Positions 10,067 to 53,293 of a stretch of 64,000 bases of DNA are shown piece after piece. Where the stretch lies: the NCBI RefSeq assembly GCF_058153355.1, contig NZ_CM177019.1. One strand, written 5' to 3'. Every line of letters starts with the position of its first letter. The first letter of the stretch is position 1. The notes beneath the pieces are model-generated. The model did no database searches. It worked only from the letters and a program-made list of their open reading frames with translations, and was not told where the DNA came from. The position numbers and the translations under genes were made by a program.

Positions 10067-10644
10067 AGCATGTACTGCATACCTCCTGCCTTAGAATTAT
10101 CTCCGGCTAACTCCACCAAACATGGCTGTACACAGCCAGATAAGAACGCTTGCGCGCATCTGGATATCATACCGCTGCTGGAACTGTTTCTTAATCATCC
10201 TACCTTATTCGACCTATTCGTTACTGGCCATTATGAAGGACGCAAAGTAAGCGCTTTTTATGCGTTTTGGCCTAGTTATTATCACGTTACCTTAATATTA
10301 TCAGGAACGAGTTAACGCTGCTCATAACGGTCAAACCGATACTATAAAGCCCAATAATTGAAACCTTTTCATCATGTCAGGAAGATAGTCATCCTTATGA
10401 TCTTTATATAAAAAAGCCAACCATGGGGTTGGCAAAGTGGCACAAACCAGCATAAAAGCTATGCTTTGTTTACAAATCTTCTTTGAATTAAATATATATC
10501 GTCCTGACTAAACAGAACTAAAACGGAATGAATTATTTAATCATATTACTAAATTTCATTTTGTTTAGACTCTGTTGAGATCCCTTGTTTTAAATTTCAT
10601 TTAGATAAAATTCTTAATTAAATCCTTGGGAGTCAATTATCTCT

Positions 10645-10899
10645 ATGCAAAGTCAAGGAATGTACTTTGAAATGAACCTATACGCATATTTGAATAAATA
10701 TGATAGTCGGCTTTCAGAAGAAAAACTTGCAATTGATAAGGCAGTTAGAGATTTATATCTTTGCAACGAACACGTGGATAACAAGAGCATTATACTGAAA
10801 TTGCTCTCATTTTTATCATCTGCTGATGACATTGTTGAAAAAGATATTATCAGGAATGCTTTGGAAGTGGTGCTTCTTTTTACATTAGACGATATTTAA
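10645..10899 (+). CDS. AriR/YmgB-family paralog (connector-like small protein)
   Basis: 84-aa ORF; C-terminal half NKSIILKLLSFLSSADDIVEKDIIRNALEVVLLFTLDDI aligns with Ari[40 protein letters not shown]. Confidence 0.7.
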   Translation: MQSQGMYFEMNLYAYLNKYDSRLSEEKLAIDKAVRDLYLCNEHVDNKSIILKLLSFLSSADDIVEKDIIRNALEVVLLFTLDDI

Positions 10900-20075: not shown

Positions 20076-20110
20076 TTATTTTCTTTACTTAAAACAAGGA
20101 AGCAGTGAAC

Positions 20111-20752
20111 GTGGCAAAGAATTACTATGACATCACCCTCGCCCTGGCCGGTATTTGTCAGTCGGCACGCCTGGTGCAACAACTCGCTCACCAGGGGCAT
20201 TGTGATGCCGATGCGCTACACGTCTCACTCAACAGTATTATTGATATGAACCCCAGCTCGACGCTGGCGGTTTTTGGCGGCAGCGAAGCCAACCTGCGCG
20301 TCGGGCTGGAAACATTGCTCGGCGTGCTCAATGCCAGCAGTCGCCAGGGCTTAAACGCTGAGTTAACCCGCTACACACTCAGCCTGATGGTGCTTGAGCG
20401 CAAACTCTCCTCAGCGAAAGGCGCGCTCGACACTCTGGGCAACCGGATCAACGGCCTGCAACGCCAGCTCGAACACTTCGATTTACAGTCCGAAACGCTG
20501 ATGAGCGCGATGGCTGCTATCTATGTTGATGTGATTAGCCCGCTTGGCCCACGCATTCAGGTCACCGGTTCCCCTGCTGTACTGCAAAGTCCACAGGTAC
20601 AGGCGAAAGTCCGCGCTACCCTGCTGGCAGGCATTCGCGCCGCCGTGCTCTGGCACCAGGTCGGCGGCGGACGTCTGCAACTGATGTTTTCTCGTAATCG
20701 CCTGACCACTCAGGCAAAACAAATTCTTGCTCATTTAACCCCGGAGTTGTGA
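20111..20752 (+). CDS. hflD: Lysogenization regulator HflD
   Basis: 213 aa from GTG ([24 protein letters not shown]...). Confidence 0.88.
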
Positions 20753-27147: not shown

Positions 27148-28284
27148 ATGGGACAGAGTAAAAAATTGAATAAACAACCGAGTTCGCTTTCACCGCTGGT
27201 GCAATTGGCGGGAATTCGCAAATGCTTTGATGGTAAAGAGGTCATTCCCCAGCTGGATCTGACTATCAATAATGGCGAGTTCCTCACGCTGCTTGGCCCT
27301 TCTGGCTGCGGTAAAACAACCGTTCTTCGCCTGATCGCAGGTCTGGAAACTGTTGATTCCGGACGCATCATGCTGGATAACGAGGACATCACCCACGTTC
27401 CGGCTGAAAACCGCTATGTGAACACTGTTTTCCAAAGCTACGCACTTTTCCCCCACATGACCGTGTTCGAAAATGTGGCCTTTGGGTTGCGCATGCAAAA
27501 AACCCCCGCAGCTGAAATTACGCCCCGCGTGATGGAAGCCCTGCGGATGGTGCAGCTGGAAACCTTCGCTCAACGCAAACCGCATCAGCTCTCTGGCGGT
27601 CAACAGCAACGCGTTGCCATTGCCCGCGCGGTGGTTAACAAGCCTCGTCTGTTGTTGCTGGATGAGTCGCTCTCAGCGCTGGATTACAAACTGCGCAAGC
27701 AAATGCAGAACGAGCTGAAAGCGTTACAGCGTAAGCTTGGCATTACATTCGTGTTCGTAACTCACGACCAGGAAGAAGCACTTACCATGTCGGACAGGAT
27801 TGTGGTGATGCGCGATGGTCGCATTGAGCAAGACGGCACGCCGCGTGAAATCTACGAAGAGCCGAAAAACCTGTTTGTTGCTGGGTTTATCGGTGAAATC
27901 AATATGTTTAATGCCACGGTCATCGAACGTCTCGACGAGCAGCGCGTACGCGCCAACGTTGAAGGCCGCGAATGTAATATCTACGTTAACTTCGCCGTTG
28001 AGCCAGGGCAAAAACTGCATGTTCTGCTACGTCCTGAAGACTTACGCGTTGAAGAGATTAACGACGATAACCACGCTGAAGGCCTGATTGGTTATGTTCG
28101 CGAGCGTAACTACAAAGGCATGACGCTGGAGTCGGTTGTTGAACTGGAAAATGGCAAGATGGTGATGGTCAGCGAATTCTTCAATGAAGACGATCCTGAC
28201 TTTGACCACTCTCTCGACCAAAAAATGGCCATTAATTGGGTAGAAAGCTGGGAGGTCGTACTGGCTGATGAAGAACACAAGTAA
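27148..28284 (+). CDS. potA: Spermidine/putrescine ABC transporter ATPase PotA
   Basis: 378-aa ORF with Walker A (GPSGCGKTT) and ABC signature (LSGGQQQR). Confidence 0.96.
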
Positions 28285-31063: not shown

Positions 31064-31097
31064 GCCAGATGCGGCGTCAACGCCTTCTCTGGTCTAC
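31064..31097. repeat. REP-like palindromic unit just 5' of the intron
   Basis: GCCAGATGCGGCGTCAACGCCTTCTCTGGTCTAC resembles the REP consensus GCCGGATGCGGCGTGAACGCCTTATCCGGCCTAC. Confidence 0.55.
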
Positions 31098-31697
31098 GAG
31101 TGCGACAAGAAGTCGTCCAACATATTGTTTTGATAAATTATTTATATAAAACCAACTATTCCATTAGTTGTAGCCTACTGAGGCAGGCAAAGCTGGTAAC
31201 GGCTCTGTCTGAAGCCCTTGGGACAATGTAGCTTAGCAAATATTGCTTCAGTTAATCGTGAGAAAACCTGATCGCTACAAGCATCATGCGGCGAGAGCGC
31301 TAGGCTGGGCGGTATGGTTAACATAGTGAACTGTCGTTAAACGTCGTAACAGAGAACGAGCCAAAGATGCTGATAGGCTTGCACCAAAAGGTAAGGGGTA
31401 AGGCTATTCCTGTTCGTAGTGGGAATACATGGACAATAACTCCCCCGGCGGATAGACAGAACCTAACCCGTTCTTTGTATGTTGGTCGGAACTTGGTAAG
31501 CCCGAATTCTCGCCCTAGTGGCAGGGGCACCGTAAGGCAAACTGATGAGAATGCGGGTAAAGGAGGATGGAAAAAGCGAAAGCCGGACTGTAATCGTGCG
31601 GATAGAGGTTCAATATTTGCCTTAACGGGAAACCGTGCTGACTTCCATCTGGTCTTTAATTGCGAAACATCTGCGAAGGTTTCTTTGGATGACATGT

Positions 31698-33377
31698 ATG
31701 AAAATTACATCTAACAATGTAACTGCGGTCATCAACGGAAAAGGTTGGCATTCCATTAACTGGAAGAAATGCCATCAACACGTTAAAACCATACAGACAA
31801 GAATCGCAAAGGCGGCATGTAACCAGCAATGGCGTACAGTCGGTAGATTGCAACGATTGCTGGTTCGCTCATTCAGCGCCAGAGCACTGGCGGTGAAACG
31901 AGTTACGGAAAATAGCGGGCGTAAAACCCCCGGAGTTGATGGTCAAATCTGGAGTACTCCAGAATCAAAATGGGAAGCGATATTCAAACTCAGGCGAAAA
32001 GGGTACAAGCCCCTACCGCTAAAAAGAGTTTTTATACCCAAATCTAATGGCAAGAAAAGACCATTAGGAATCCCCGTCATGCTTGACAGGGCAATGCAGG
32101 CCCTGCATCTGCTGGGATTGGAGCCTGTATCGGAAACTAATGCAGATCACAACAGTTATGGTTTCAGACCAGCGCGATGTACGGCTGACGCCATTCAACA
32201 GGTATGTAATATGTATAGTTCCCGGAACGCCTCGAAATGGGTTCTGGAAGGCGATATTAAAGGATGCTTTGAACACATTAGCCACGAGTGGCTGCTTGAA
32301 AATATTCCTATGGACAAGCAAATACTCCGTAATTGGTTGAAAGCCGGGATCATCGAAAAAAGCATATTCAGCAAAACTCTCTCGGGTACACCCCAGGGAG
32401 GAATCATATCTCCAGTTCTGGCAAACATGGCCCTGGATGGACTGGAAAGACTGCTGCAAAATCGCTTTGGTCCGAAACGCTCAAAAACATTCAGGAAACA
32501 TCAGGTTCACTTCGTCCGGTATGCTGATGATTTCATCATTTCCGGAAAGTCGAAAGAACTTCTGGAGGAGAATGTTCTTCCGTTGGTGAAATCATTTCTT
32601 GCAGAAAGAGGGCTGACGTTATCCGAAGAGAAAACGGTCATCACTCACATTACTGACGGATTTGATTTCCTTGGGCAGCACGTCCGACGCTTCGGTAGAA
32701 AACTCATAATCAGACCAGCCAAGAAAAACGTTAAACAATTTCTTAGCAAGATCAGAGAGACTATTGAAGGTAACCGAACGGTTCCTGCATGGGTGCTAAT
32801 AAATCTGCTTAATCCAATCATCACCGGGTGGGCAAACTATCACCAACATGTAGCATCGGCAGAGACATTTAACTATGTCGACAACCAAATCTGGCGCAAA
32901 ATCTGGCAGTGGTGCAGAAGGAGACATCCCGGCAAAGGCCGGAGATGGATCTTCCGAAAGTACCACACGACAATAAAAATGTGTCATGGTCGATTTTATG
33001 GAGTCGATCCGGAGGGTAGGAAATATGTTCTGTCCCGGGCCAGCGACATCCATATTAATCGCTATATAAAAATAAAGGGAACGGCAAATCCATATGATCC
33101 CGAGTGGGAAACATACTTCGAAAGAAGGCTGGACTACTCATGGAAGAAATCCCAACAGGGGCAGAAAAGGATTCTCGCTATATGGAAAAGGCAAGGATCG
33201 CGCTGCCCTTTATGTGAGCAACCGATTAATCGCGATACAGGATGGAATGTTCATCATTTGCTCAAGAAATCTCTTGGCGGTAGCGATGATGTGAGCAATT
33301 TAGTCCTACTCCATCCCAACTGCCATCGACAACTACATAGTAATGACGCTGGTCTCCCACAAGGTGGAGGCTTATAA
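31698..33377 (+). CDS. Group II intron-encoded protein (reverse transcriptase / maturase / HNH endonuclease)
   Basis: RT motifs including YADD (HFVRYADDFIISG), maturase/X region, C-terminal HNH (CPLCEQPI...HHLLKKSLGGSDDVSNLVLLHPNCHRQLH); start could be 31635 or 31689. Confidence 0.88.
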   Translation: MKITSNNVTAVINGKGWHSINWKKCHQHVKTIQTRIAKAACNQQWRTVGRLQRLLVRSFSARALAVKRVTENSGRKTPGVDGQIWSTPESKWEAIFKLRRKGYKPLPLKRVFIPKSNGKKRPLGIPVMLDRAMQALHLLGLEPVSETNADHNSYGFRPARCTADAIQQVCNMYSSRNASKWVLEGDIKGCFEHISHEWLLENIPMDKQILRNWLKAGIIEKSIFSKTLSGTPQGGIISPVLANMALDGLERLLQNRFGPKRSKTFRKHQVHFVRYADDFIISGKSKELLEENVLPLVKSFLAERGLTLSEEKTVITHITDGFDFLGQHVRRFGRKLIIRPAKKNVKQFLSKIRETIEGNRTVPAWVLINLLNPIITGWANYHQHVASAETFNYVDNQIWRKIWQWCRRRHPGKGRRWIFRKYHTTIKMCHGRFYGVDPEGRKYVLSRASDIHINRYIKIKGTANPYDPEWETYFERRLDYSWKKSQQGQKRILAIWKRQGSRCPLCEQPINRDTGWNVHHLLKKSLGGSDDVSNLVLLHPNCHRQLHSNDAGLPQGGGL

Positions 33378-33383
33378 AGGCTT

Positions 33384-33417
33384 GAGCGGTATGCGGGGAA
33401 ACTCGCACGTACCGTTC
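33384..33417 (+). ncRNA. Group II intron domain V (catalytic hairpin)
   Basis: GAGCGGTATGCGGGGAAACTCGCACGTACCGTTC matches the domain V consensus (GAGC...GNRA loop...GTTC, AGC triad context). Confidence 0.7.
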
Positions 33418-33477
33418 TTAGGGGGCGGCGAGACAGTAATGAATCGCTGCTACCCGACCACCCGCAAATTCAATTCA

Positions 33478-33531: not shown

Positions 33532-34353
33532 TTATAAGCCCTTCAGCAACTTTTCAACAAACTCTGGCACCACCTGGCTTGCCGGGCCGTAATATTTCTC
33601 GGCAAATTCATTACCGACCTGACTCGGTTCAAGATTGAGTTCCACAGTGTGCGCACCATGCAGTTTCGCTTCGTGAACAAATCCAGCCGCCGGATAAACA
33701 TGCCCGGAAGTACCAATGGCAATGAAAATATCGGCCATCGACAACGCCATATAAATTTCATCCATGCCGAGTGGCATTTCGCCAAACCAAACGACGTGCG
33801 GGCGCAAGGGTGCCGGGAACTGGCAACAATGGCATTTATCTTCTGGCGTAACGTCTCCGGTCCAGTCGAGAATCTGACCACTTTGCGAACAACGTACTTT
33901 CAGCAATTCCCCATGCATATGAATCACATTGGTATTACCTGCGCGTTCGTGCAGATTGTCGATATTCTGCGTCACCAGCAAAAAGCGATCGCCGAGAGCA
34001 TCTTGCAGTTTAGCTAGCGCAAGATGCGCGGCGTTAGGCTGAATTTCTGGCTGCTGTAGCTGTCGACGACGGGCGTTATAAAACGCTTGCACCAGTTCAG
34101 GATCGCGATCGAAACCTTCCGGCGTTGCCACATCTTCAACCCGATGTTCTTCCCACAGGCCATCTGCGGCGCGAAAGGTACGAATACCTGATTCCGCGGA
34201 AATCCCTGCCCCTGTCAGTACGAGTACTCTTGGTTTTTCCATTGCTTCCGGCACCACTTTATCTCTGAAAAAAATACGCTGACGCAAACGCTCGCGCAGG
34301 CGGCGTTTATTTTTACGAAAACGACTTAACCGATGACCCCGACGCGACAGCAT
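33532..34353 (-). CDS. cobB: NAD-dependent protein deacylase CobB (sirtuin)
   Basis: 273-aa ORF; Sir2 motifs ([25 protein letters not shown], Zn-binding CxxC...CxxC). Confidence 0.94.
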
Positions 34354-43495: not shown

Positions 43496-44461
43496 TTGGT
43501 GATGATCAAAACGCGTTTTTCTCGCTGGCTAACGTTTTTTACGTTCGCCGCTGCCGTGGCGCTGGCGCTACCGGTAAAAGCCAACACCTGGCCGCTGCCG
43601 CCAGCAGGCAGTCGTCTGGTTGGCGAAAACAAATTTCATGTGGTGGAAAATGACGGTGGTTCTCTGGAAGCCATCGCCAAAAAATATAATGTCGGCTTTC
43701 TCGCTCTGTTACAGGCTAACCCCGGCGTTGATCCTTACGTGCCGCGCGCGGGTAGCGTGTTAACGATCCCGTTGCAAACCCTACTTCCAGATGCGCCGCG
43801 CGAAGGCATTGTGATCAATATTGCGGAACTGCGTCTCTATTACTACCCGCCGGGTAAAAATTCGGTAACCGTGTATCCCATCGGCATTGGTCAGTTGGGT
43901 GGTGACACGCTGACACCGACAATGGTGACCACCGTTTCTGACAAGCGTGCAAACCCAACCTGGACGCCAACGGCAAACATTCGCGCGCGGTATAAGGCAC
44001 AGGGAATTGAGTTGCCTGCGGTAGTTCCGGCTGGACCGGATAACCCAATGGGCCATCATGCGATTCGTCTGGCGGCCTATGGCGGTGTTTATTTGCTTCA
44101 CGGTACGAACGCCGATTTCGGCATTGGCATGCGGGTAAGTTCTGGCTGTATTCGTCTGCGGGATGACGATATCAAAACACTCTTTAGCCAGGTCACCCCA
44201 GGTACCAAAGTGAATATCATCAACACCCCGATTAAAGTCTCTGCCGAACCAAACGGTGCGCGTCTGGTTGAAGTACATCAACCGCTGTCAGAGAAGATTG
44301 ATGACGATCCACAACTGTTGCCAATTACGCTGAACAGCGCAATGCAATCATTTAAAGATGCAGCGCAAACTGACGCTGAAGTGATGCAGCATGTGATGGA
44401 TGTCCGTTCCGGGATGCCGGTGGATGTCCGCCGTCATCAAGTGAGCCCACAAACTTTGTAA
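43496..44461 (+). CDS. ldtC: L,D-transpeptidase LdtC (YcfS)
   Basis: 321-aa ORF, signal peptide, LysM region and YkuD catalytic motif (HGTN...SSGCIRL). Confidence 0.93.
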   Translation: MVMIKTRFSRWLTFFTFAAAVALALPVKANTWPLPPAGSRLVGENKFHVVENDGGSLEAIAKKYNVGFLALLQANPGVDPYVPRAGSVLTIPLQTLLPDAPREGIVINIAELRLYYYPPGKNSVTVYPIGIGQLGGDTLTPTMVTTVSDKRANPTWTPTANIRARYKAQGIELPAVVPAGPDNPMGHHAIRLAAYGGVYLLHGTNADFGIGMRVSSGCIRLRDDDIKTLFSQVTPGTKVNIINTPIKVSAEPNGARLVEVHQPLSEKIDDDPQLLPITLNSAMQSFKDAAQTDAEVMQHVMDVRSGMPVDVRRHQVSPQTL

Positions 44462-44801: not shown

Positions 44802-45041
44802 AATAGTGGCCTTATGCAGATGAATGACGTCGCAAGCAATTACTTAACGATCGATAACTAAATGATAGATGTGATCTGGATCACATACAAGATATTTTTT
44901 ATAACAATCATTAATTAATTTAAAAATCTTTAAATTTCAGTTAAATAGAAAGCAATTATTTTTATGGTTTGTGGACTGGTGAACGGAGGTGATTATTTTT
45001 ATAATAACCTTTCATTCACAGTCACCAGGTACAACGGCATC

Positions 45042-45674
45042 ATGGCAACTGACTCAACACAATGTGTAAAAAAAAGCCGTGGCCGCCCAAAAGTGTTCGA
45101 CAGGGATGCCGCGCTTGATAAGGCCATGAAATTGTTCTGGCAGCACGGTTATGAAGCGACTTCTCTTGCGGACCTCGTCGAAGCGACCGGAGCCAAAGCG
45201 CCCACGCTATACGCGGAATTTACCAACAAAGAGGGGTTATTCCGCGCCGTACTCGACCGCTATATCGATCGTTTTGCCGCTAAGCATGAAGCACAGCTGT
45301 TTTGTGAAGAGAAAAGCGTGGAGTCTGCGCTGGCTGACTATTTTGCTGCCATCGCCAACTGCTTTACCAGCAAAGACACCCCGGCTGGCTGCTTTATGAT
45401 CAACAACTGCACCACCCTCTCCCCGGATTCCGGAGATATCGCCAATACGCTGAAATCACGCCATGCGATGCAAGAGCGCACTTTGCAGCAGTTTTTATGT
45501 CAACGACAAGCGCGCGGGGAAATCCCGACCCACTGTGATGTGACGCATCTGGCTGAATTCCTTAATTGTATTATTCAGGGGATGTCGATCAGCGCACGCG
45601 AAGGTGCATCGCTGGAAAAACTGATGCAGATTGCCCGAACGACTTTGCGTTTATGGCCCGAACTGGTGAAATAA
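45042..45674 (+). CDS. comR: TetR-family repressor ComR (YcfQ)
   Basis: 210 aa from MATDSTQCVKKSRGRPKVF; N-terminal TetR HTH. Confidence 0.9.
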   Translation: MATDSTQCVKKSRGRPKVFDRDAALDKAMKLFWQHGYEATSLADLVEATGAKAPTLYAEFTNKEGLFRAVLDRYIDRFAAKHEAQLFCEEKSVESALADYFAAIANCFTSKDTPAGCFMINNCTTLSPDSGDIANTLKSRHAMQERTLQQFLCQRQARGEIPTHCDVTHLAEFLNCIIQGMSISAREGASLEKLMQIARTTLRLWPELVK

Positions 45675-45736
45675 GGCGCAAAAAAAAGCCCCTCAGCCTG
45701 AGCGAATGGGGGGCTAAATTGCAGAATACAGCCTTG

Positions 45737-46276
45737 TTATACTTTGTTATTCAAAATCAGTTGCCCGTTGCCATCTAACGGGATCTGCGTACCCGGATCG
45801 CGGTCCATGCGGATTTTGCCCTGCTGATCGCCAATCTTATAGGTCACATCATAACCGAGCATTTTTTCTGACTTGTCATACACCGTTTTACAACGCTGTT
45901 GCGTAGTCGTGTAAGTATCGCTTTCCTGGAGAGAGCCCTGGATCTGGTTACCGGCATAGCCACCTCCCAGCGCCCCCACAACAGTGGCGACATCTTTACC
46001 GCGACCACCGCCAAACTGATGCCCTATCACGCCGCCAGCAACAGCGCCGAGCACCGACCCGGTAATGCGATTTTCATCCTGCACCGGTCGACGATGGGTC
46101 ACTGTGACGTTGCGACACTCCTGACGCGGTGTTTTAACCGTTTCCTTGATTGGGGTTGCAGAAACAACCTGAGCGTATTGCGGGCCACGTTCAAACACGT
46201 TCAGACTGGCCACTGCCGCTACGCCCAACGCAGCTGCGACACCAATCCCCATACCCGCCAACATTGATTTATTCAC
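45737..46276 (-). CDS. ycfJ: Glycine-zipper outer-membrane-associated protein YcfJ
   Basis: 179 aa from GTG (VNKSMLAGMGIGVAAALGV...). Confidence 0.88.
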   Translation of the reverse strand: MNKSMLAGMGIGVAAALGVAAVASLNVFERGPQYAQVVSATPIKETVKTPRQECRNVTVTHRRPVQDENRITGSVLGAVAGGVIGHQFGGGRGKDVATVVGALGGGYAGNQIQGSLQESDTYTTTQQRCKTVYDKSEKMLGYDVTYKIGDQQGKIRMDRDPGTQIPLDGNGQLILNNKV

Positions 46277-46394
46277 GGGAACACCTCCTTCTTTGCTGTT
46301 ATGCCAATCATGCAAGTGAAGGAGAAAAGCAGCTATCAGACAGAAGATGAAAAGCGCGGGAATGGCTGGAAATACTTAGGGATTCGGAGGAGTC

Positions 46395-46492
<98 letters not shown>

Positions 46493-46502
46493 TACAAGCC
46501 GA

Positions 46503-47807
46503 TTAATGCAACTTCAAACGTGGACGGATAACGCGGTTAATACTCCCCACCAGCATCATTAATCCGGTTTTAAAGTAACCATGCAGCGCAATCTGATGCA
46601 TTCTGTATAGCGAGATGTATACAAAGCGCGCAATTCGTCCTTCAATCATCATTGAGCCGCGCGTCAGGTTACCCATCAGGCTACCAACGGTGGAGAAATT
46701 CGACAACGATACCAGCGAACCGTGATCTTTATACTGATAATTTTTCAGCGGCTTACCGTTCATCTGCGCCAGAATGTTGTTCATTGCGCAGGTTGCCATC
46801 TGGTGTGCGGCCTGCGCACGCGGCGGAACAAAGCCCCCTTCCGGACGCGGGCATGACGCGCAGTCGCCAATAGCGTATATGTCTGGATCGCGAGTGGTTT
46901 GCAGCGTCGGTTCCACCACCAGCTGGTTGATACGGTTGGTTTCAAGACCACCGATATCTTTCAGGAAGTCTGGCGCTTTGATCCCGGCTGCCCACACCAT
47001 CAGATCAGCCTCAATATATTCACCATCTTTAGTGTGCAGGCCGCCTTCATCAGCACTGGTGACCATGGTTTGCGTCAGCACGCGAACGCCAAGTTTCGTT
47101 AACTCATTATGGGCCGCAGCAGAAATACGTGGCGGCAACGCAGGCAAAATACGTTCGCCCGCTTCTACCAGCGTTACGTTCAGGGCTTCGTTGGTCAGAC
47201 CTTTATAACCGTAGCTGTGCAGTTGCTTGACCGCGTTGTGCAATTCTGCGGAGAGTTCTACACCCGTCGCGCCGCCGCCGACAATCGCAATGTTCACTTT
47301 ACCATTCGCGCCCAGGTTGGCGGAGTATTTCAGGAACAGATTCAGCATCTCCTGGTGGAAACGACGCGCCTGATGCGGGTTATCGAGGAAAATGCAGTTC
47401 TCTTTGACTCCTGGCGTATTGAAATCGTTAGAGGTGCTGCCCAACGCCATTACCAGGGTGTCATAGGCGATTTTACGTTCCGGAACCAGCAGTTCACCTT
47501 TCTCGTCGCGCAGTTCTGCAATAGTGATTGTTTTCGCTTCACGATCAATATCAATGACGGAACCCAGCTGGAACTGGAAACCATGATTGCGCGCATGGGC
47601 CAGATAGCTCAACGCATCGACGCCTTCATCAAGCGAGCCAGTCGCCACTTCGTGCAGCAGCGGTTTCCACAAGTGGCTGTGGTTACGATCGACCAGCGTA
47701 ATTTTGGCTTTTTTCTTGCGTCCCAGCTTATGTCCCAGCTGTGTCGCCATTTCCAGCCCACCAGCACCGCCGCCGACAATCACAATTTTTTTCAATGGCG
47801 TAGTCAA
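46503..47807 (-). CDS. ndh: NADH dehydrogenase II (Ndh)
   Basis: 434 aa from TTG start ([17 protein letters not shown]) after AAGGGGG; FAD/NAD Rossmann motifs. Confidence 0.95.
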
Positions 47808-48128
47808 CGTGACCCCCTTAAATTTATTAACCAATTGTTAACTAATAGTTATTAATATAGCTCTTAATTAACAACAGGTTACAGCAATGAAAATGTTCTT
47901 CGTTATTGAGAATAACATGAATGGTGCATTGGTCATACCAAAATTGATGTTAATCAAGTTTTGTTGCTGAAAAGATAGGCTGATTTACCGGATGAGATCA
48001 AAAAATACAGCTTATTGTTTATTATTCAAACGAATTCAGGAGGGTGAGACGTATATGGAGGGCGTTTGGTAGATACTGTTATGGCCTGCAAGTTTTTTTC
48101 TACCCCGGTTTCCCAGATTGCAGGCATG

Positions 48129-49440
<1,312 letters not shown>

Positions 49441-49492
49441 GAATCTGGAACGCATCAGGTATCAGCAAGGTTACCTGATGCGACGAGGGCAT

Positions 49493-50035
49493 TTAACCGA
49501 GGGTTTTGAACGCTTTAATGCGCTGCAAATGCGGGGAGATATTCTTGAATTTGTGCGTCTGCTCTTCGTCCCAGACAATCTCGTAATAATGATGCAACTC
49601 TTCAGATGTCCGCTGGCTGTTAAGCGCTTCATCGTTACGCGACAAAATCACCAGACAGCGATCGCGATTCTTCTCGCGGAAGTTGGTCACACACTTAGTG
49701 GCAATATCGGCATACTCTTCCGGGCGATCAATCTTGCCTTCCATGTTCTCATAAGGGAACAAATTAGGATTGAAGATCACCTGGCGGATATCGCAAAGAA
49801 AACCAATTCGCTCCGCCCAGTATCCGCCCAGACCAACGCCGCATATCAGCGGACGCTCATCGACGTTTAGTTGCAGCATTTTGTCCACTTCTTTGAGCAG
49901 ATGCTGCATATCATGTTTCGGATGCCGCGTACTGTAGCTTATCAAGCGTACATCCGGGTCAATAAACTGCAATTGTAAGACTTTCTCGTGGTTACCCGGA
50001 CTGTTAGAGTCAAAACCGTGTAAATAGATAATCAT
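49493..50035 (-). CDS. ycfP: UPF0227 esterase-like protein YcfP
   Basis: 180 aa from [18 protein letters not shown] (alpha/beta hydrolase). Confidence 0.9.
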
Positions 50036-50057: not shown

Positions 50058-51898
<1,841 letters not shown>

Positions 51899-51918
<20 letters not shown>

Positions 51919-52933: not shown

Positions 52934-53293
52934 TTACAGACCTTTATGCGCCAGCATTGGTCCCAGCGGACGGCCACCCAACAAGTGCATATGGATGTGA
53001 TACACCTCTTGTCCGCCATGGCGATTGGTGTTCATGATCAGACGATAGCCATCTTCGGCAATACCTTCTTGCTCAGCAATTTTTGCCGCTACGGTGATCA
53101 TGCGTCCCAGCGCCTGCTCATGCTCAGCAGACACGTCGTTCACAGTCGGAATGAGGATATTTGGAATGATCAGAATATGCGTTGGCGCTTGCGGCGAAAT
53201 ATCGCGAAACGCCGTTACCAGATCATCCTGGTAGACGATATCGGAGGGGATCTCACGACGAATAATTTTGCTAAATATAGTTTCTTCTGCCAC
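52934..53293 (-). CDS. hinT: Purine nucleoside phosphoramidase HinT
   Basis: 119 aa from GTG; HIT motif HIHMHLL. Confidence 0.92.

Follow-up and report, generated by a model that had tools for sequence, protein, structure and literature searches.

The UUG initiation codon of the Escherichia coli ndh gene is named in the title of the study by Young et al. 1981 (Eur J Biochem 116:165; cited in PMC3237581). Across the E. coli genome 83% of genes start at ATG, 14% at GTG and 3% at TTG, and in reporter assays GUG and UUG initiate at 10-100% of the level of AUG (10.1101/063800). Published start-site evidence exists for two GTG-initiated genes of K-12: two N-terminal peptides of HinT were found at the K-12 GTG by deformylation-assisted N-terminomics, with support from Ribo-RET and INRI-seq, and an N-terminal peptide of BluR was likewise found at the K-12 GTG (PMC13245402 Table S1). 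The ndh gene of K-12 (b1109) has ycfJ and ycfP as neighbours and starts at a TTG that follows AAGGGGG after a 5-nt spacer. The initiator fMet-tRNA tolerates a mismatch at the first position of GUG or UUG, and formyl-methionine remains the first residue of the protein; base pairing between the Shine-Dalgarno sequence and the 16S rRNA places the 30S subunit. Young and colleagues reportedly also found the N-terminus of the purified enzyme to agree with the ndh sequence.

A stretch of 64,000 nucleotides (the window) from an E. coli chromosome was used for the analysis. The 4.5-kb stretch around ndh matched 5425 of 5426 complete E. coli genomes, and strain N96 was the closest among the 5426 for this stretch (99.4%). 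Genes were placed on the window by BLAST of the RefSeq/PGAP genes of strain N96, and a total of 58 CDS were mapped. The gene order runs, with other genes between, from ymgG over icd, mnmA-hflD-purB and the pot and lol genes to mfd. Beyond mfd come comR, ycfJ, ndh, IS621, ycfP, nagZ, thiK, lpoB, ycfL, hinT, fhuE and ptsG and, further on, fabF and acpP. An insertion of ~2.4 kb was found at about 31095-33458, between potD (end 30959) and cobB (33532-34353), and it encodes a 580-aa group II intron reverse transcriptase/maturase ORF (31635-33377, + strand). At least 80% of this insertion was present in only two of the 5426 complete E. coli genomes, in both cases on plasmids, beside hok and at 97% identity; at the potD-cobB site it was absent from all chromosomes among these genomes.

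Mapping from N96 placed six genes of the window at non-ATG starts: ndh (start 47807, - strand) and ymgG (2442, + strand) at TTG, and hflD (20111, + strand), ycfJ (46276, - strand), thiK (51918, - strand) and hinT (53293, - strand) at GTG. Curated K-12 MG1655 has the same start codons for all six genes and the same protein lengths, namely 434 aa for ndh, 114 aa for ymgG, 213 aa for hflD, 179 aa for ycfJ, 274 aa for thiK and 119 aa for hinT. The initial annotation had held that these genes reach their reference N-termini only from TTG or GTG, and this proved right; the comparison with a curated reference that it had proposed as a check gave agreement at all six start codons. Its list of non-ATG genes was correct in the six entries but incomplete, as bluR (8452..9183, + strand), ldtC (43499..44461, + strand, with an ATG directly after the GTG), nagZ (50058..51083, - strand, GTG in 76 of 78 species) and fabF (61997..63238, - strand, Shine-Dalgarno GGAGG, -9.3 kcal/mol) also start at GTG. 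The start positions of the six genes, and their agreement with the reference annotation, are thus matters of observation. It is very probable that the six are ordinary bacterial genes started at near-cognate UUG or GUG and that their reference starts are right as a set. Their non-ATG starts are real, ordinary and already known, being recorded both in the reference and in current automated annotation.

Analysis of the 58 mapped genes revealed ATG as the start codon in 46, GTG in eight and TTG in two, plus one ATT and one ATC, which are PGAP calls for small hypothetical genes. GTG and TTG starts make up 10 of the 58 CDS (17%; binomial p = 0.53 against the genome-wide values, p = 0.52 for TTG alone), and the frequency of non-ATG starts in the window is that of the genome average. 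On the same sequence in strain N96, PGAP starts a YmgB/AriR-family gene (window 10639-10899) at ATC; this call looks doubtful because an ATG lies two codons downstream.

The ndh CDS (46503..47807, - strand) encodes a type II NADH:quinone oxidoreductase of 434 aa that is 100% identical to the PGAP gene of N96, and the public protein collection lists the identical protein as NDH_ECOLI. The stop codon ends at 46503, and the interval given in the initial annotation, 46503-47807, is exactly this CDS. The TTG start codon (47805..47807, - strand), which is the same codon in K-12, lies 5 nt after the Shine-Dalgarno sequence AAGGGGG (47813..47819, - strand, within TAAGGGGGT). The order described initially, a TTG after AAGGGGG, is what the DNA contains, as the reverse complement of 47793-47819 reads AAGGGGG-TCACG-TTGACTACGCCATTG. 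Comparison with K-12 revealed an identical protein, the same TTG, AAGGGGG and 5-nt spacer, and the same neighbours ycfJ and ycfP; the difference is that IS621 has been added between ycfP and ndh in this strain, with the start region unchanged. This IS621 element (IS110-family) occupies about 48000-49450 of the window, with its transposase gene at 48178-49158 on the - strand, and the end of the transposase gene lies ~370 nt upstream of the ndh TTG. The entire arrangement at 45000-49500 with IS621 was common to only nine of the 5426 complete genomes.

The start candidates of ndh are the TTG at codon -9 (47832..47834, - strand), which opens the longest ORF, the TTG at codon 0, a TTG at +4, a GTG at +8 and an ATG at +19. 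No in-frame ATG is present from the upstream stop (47838-47840) to codon 19. The Pfam domain Pyr_redox_2 was found at residues 6-338 of Ndh (E = 9e-65), and solved NDH-2 homologue structures align from query residue 6. Two dinucleotide-binding GxGxxG motifs are present, GGGAGG at residues 12-17 and GGGATG at residues 176-181. The FAD-binding fold would be truncated by a start at +8 or +19, and an ATG start would lose the FAD-binding strand and loop, since Pyr_redox_2 runs from residue 6, GGGAGG stands at residues 12-17 and the first ATG is codon 19. Calculation of the duplex with the 16S rRNA 3' tail gave -11.9 kcal/mol at the TTG start, compared with +1.0 to -5.4 kcal/mol at the rival starts, and by the same calculation the TTG at codon -9 has no Shine-Dalgarno sequence.

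Conservation of the ndh start was analysed with one genome per species in a total of 80 Enterobacteriaceae loci, the proteins of which are all at least 92% identical. The start column contains TTG in 67 species, ATG in seven and GTG in six, and a non-start codon in none. ATG was found in Kluyvera and relatives, and GTG in Raoultella, Yokenella, Pseudocitrobacter and others. The rival codons behave differently: codon 4 (TTG) is TTA, ATC or CTG in some species, codon 8 (GTG) is GTA, GTC or GTT in some, and codon 19 is ATG in 21 of the 80 species and CTG in 53. Immediately downstream of the start, the three codon positions have variabilities of 0.037, 0.014 and 0.33, and upstream of it the values are 0.105, 0.129 and 0.152, without such periodicity. 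The GGGGG core of the Shine-Dalgarno sequence is kept in nearly all 80 loci. As judged from sequence comparison, this conservation pattern is characteristic of a genuine start codon, in agreement with the title of Young et al. 1981, and the classical UUG start of ndh acts as a true start codon over the 80 species. In 55 of the 80 loci an in-frame upstream start candidate of any kind is absent. The TTG at codon -9 is usable as an in-frame candidate in only 21, its distance to the start being 25, 26, 27 or 28 nt; it was ruled out as the ndh start owing to its missing Shine-Dalgarno sequence, its use being limited to these 21 loci and its drift out of frame. Just upstream of the Shine-Dalgarno sequence, the ndh leader contains the motif CAATTGGTTAAT (47826-47837, - strand), which is present in all 80 Enterobacteriaceae loci, with single-base indels between the motif and the start codon in some of them. 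The motif is probably part of a promoter or operator; scanning the region upstream of ndh for consensus promoters gave no promoter-like site.

For hinT (52934..53293, - strand; GTG 53291-53293), N-terminal proteomics, the other check proposed initially, has an answer in the literature, as its published peptides map to the GTG (PMC13245402 Table S1). In 77 species the hinT start column contains ATG in 56 and GTG in 21. Of the hinT candidates, the annotated start has the strongest Shine-Dalgarno duplex (-5.6 kcal/mol), and the HIT domain extends from residue 12. The thiK gene (51094..51918, - strand; GTG 51916-51918) shares 20 nt with the 3' end of lpoB, and 76 of 78 species have GTG in its start column, a conservation imposed in part by the overlapping lpoB reading frame. 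Its Shine-Dalgarno duplex is also strongest at the annotated start (-4.9 kcal/mol). At codon -8 of thiK this strain has an extra upstream GTG, where K-12 and 57 of the 78 species have GCG. With all in-frame candidates listed, no ATG was found within the first 40 codons of hflD, hinT or thiK. Among the rows listed in the TRAINSPOTTER table, hinT and bluR are present, and ndh, ycfJ, thiK, hflD and ymgG do not appear.

The ymgG gene (2442..2786, + strand) starts at a TTG (2442-2444) that follows the stop of the small ORF ymgI at a distance of 1 nt, and K-12 ymgG (NP_415690.5) has the same TTG. In-frame ATGs occur at codons 20 and 23; a start at either would lose a signal-peptide-like N-terminus (...AMA), which the TTG alone would keep. 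It is this argument, together with the curated record, that points to the TTG. In four distant homologues (Edwardsiella and three metagenome-derived contigs) no start codon is present at the TTG column, two of them having CTG there, and all four have an ATG with a good Shine-Dalgarno sequence ~11 codons upstream. The E. coli ymgG TTG is therefore specific to Escherichia, these distant homologues having no start codon at this position and an upstream ATG instead. The upstream ORF ymgI (window 2260-2441) has AAG in this strain in place of its K-12 start ATG, and in strain N96, where the sequence is the same, the ORF annotated by PGAP has 50 aa and begins at an ATT (2288).

It had been suggested initially that automated annotation would mis-set these starts. 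Allele forms were counted by exact-sequence look-up in the public protein collection, as contigs per form. For ndh the 434-aa form is present on at least 1000 contigs, and other forms of 415 aa (128 contigs), 426 aa (128), 430 aa (50) and 443 aa (40) occur. The 119-aa form of hinT is likewise present on at least 1000 contigs, with a 125-aa form on 65. The 179-aa form of ycfJ is found on at least 1000 contigs and a 175-aa form on 10, the 192-aa form being absent from the collection. For hflD the 213-aa form is found on at least 1000 contigs, a 215-aa form on 498 and a 192-aa form on 13. Some of the shorter forms carry the label "partial" from their source, and this strain's alleles of thiK and ymgG occur in the collection seldom or not at all. 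The suggestion is only partly true and was not supported in the form given: miscalled forms do exist, but PGAP, itself an automated pipeline, sets all six starts in N96 as in K-12 and the miscalls are a minority. The risk of a miscall is real but minor and is largest for hflD; this gene, and to a lesser degree ndh and hinT, is still miscalled in a minority of public annotations.

A neighbouring in-frame codon might be the true start, or might be used together with the reference start, in hflD, ycfJ, ymgG or thiK, in which case the reference N-terminus would be wrong or two forms would exist; we consider this unlikely. Dual starts are common in E. coli, and potA provides an example within the window: its annotated ATG (window 27148-27168 region) has no Shine-Dalgarno pairing, and an alternative TTG six codons downstream, at codon 7 (window 27166), has a peptide and support from N-terminomics, Ribo-RET and INRI-seq (PMC13245402 Table S1). 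This potA TTG is not in the reference annotation. Another gene of the window, trkG (start 13663, - strand), has in-frame TTGs two and six codons upstream of its ATG, and a newly proposed minor start codon and an anomalous lacZ-fusion result were reported for it in tetracycline profiling (PMC4909307). In hflD (20111..20752, + strand), the GTG (20111-20113) and a second in-frame GTG two codons upstream (20105-20107) lie 6 nt apart and use one Shine-Dalgarno sequence, AAGGAAG, with spacers of 3 and 9 nt, and the 215-aa form is the one found on 498 contigs. However, GTG is present at the reference position in five of five genera (Escherichia, Salmonella, Citrobacter, Enterobacter and Kosakonia), Enterobacter has GAC in place of the upstream GTG and AAGGAG 5 nt before the reference GTG, and in Kosakonia the upstream GTG sits within the Shine-Dalgarno sequence. 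The arrangements in Enterobacter and Kosakonia therefore favour the 213-aa reference form, and DUF489 extends from HflD residue 7. In ycfJ (45737..46276, - strand; GTG 46274-46276) in-frame ATGs at codons 4 and 8 would shorten the N-terminus relative to the reference, the codon-4 ATG is invariant in 76 of 76 species and the 175-aa form is on record. Against this, AAGGAGG lies 7 nt before the GTG (duplex -13.0 kcal/mol) and 19 nt before the codon-4 ATG, and the start column is GTG in 69 and ATG in seven of the 76 species. Codons 1-3 of ycfJ are translated, as codon 3 varies only among the serine codons TCA, TCT, TCG and TCC; a minor second start at the codon-4 ATG may conceivably exist beside the GTG. 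The ymgG TTG has a weak Shine-Dalgarno duplex (-3.2 kcal/mol), but a start at codon 20 or 23 would delete the signal-peptide-like N-terminus. Furthermore, the accessible part of the supplements of a tetracycline profiling study that list revised starts names none of the six genes, an absence that fits, as negative evidence only, with no revised start for them.

Two other explanations of the reference starts as a set carry even less probability. The non-ATG starts would be peculiar to this strain if mutation or sequencing error had destroyed ancestral ATGs, and the neighbouring ymgI has indeed lost its K-12 ATG here; but the same six codons are found in K-12 and in strain N96, and they are common to several genera. 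A strain-specific origin is refuted by the comparison with K-12 and with the 80 species, and we regard it as next to impossible. It is also highly improbable that the window is enriched in weak starts as a co-regulated block sensitive to initiation-factor levels. Five non-ATG genes (ycfJ, ndh, nagZ, thiK and hinT) do lie within ~7.5 kb, yet the 10 GTG or TTG starts among 58 compare with an expectation of 17%, and enrichment was rejected (p = 0.53). Moreover, the non-ATG genes are functionally unrelated and are distributed over different transcription units, and in other genera hinT starts mostly at ATG and ndh mostly at TTG, which indicates no co-variation. The reading of the six as ordinary genes with correct reference starts is the one retained; their start codons also behave in evolution as start codons. 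The result is of little importance in itself, and it confirms the soundness of the reference starts of the six genes.

Any tuning or coupling role of the six starts is one that we infer. In ndh and ycfJ a weak codon is combined with a well-spaced Shine-Dalgarno sequence close to the consensus, which would probably give a moderate translation rate. Translation of thiK is probably coupled to that of the overlapped lpoB, and ymgG may be coupled to the small ORF ymgI, as the position of the ymgI stop 1 nt before its TTG is an arrangement that may couple translation.

Among known systems, the lacI GTG is a plausible analogue of the conserved ndh TTG; it is a weak start that is kept in Enterobacteriaceae and reduces protein output, and its effect on fitness has been demonstrated (PMC11445065). 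Tentatively, the ndh TTG with its near-perfect Shine-Dalgarno sequence, found as TTG in 67 of 80 species, might be held by selection, capping NDH-2 synthesis or giving sensitivity to initiation factors, a reading that 80 closely related species do not separate from shared ancestry. If it were true, the ATG of Kluyvera and the GTG of Raoultella, Yokenella and a few other lineages would represent lineage-specific retuning, analogous to the lacI GTG. Compared with the general class of bacterial genes initiated at GUG or UUG, no feature sets the six genes apart, and ymgG alone is atypical in that it abuts an upstream ORF and is without a clear Shine-Dalgarno sequence. What the six genes have in common with that class is the same kind of in-frame near-cognate codon, with a Shine-Dalgarno sequence in front of it and read as fMet, and its interchange with ATG in orthologues.
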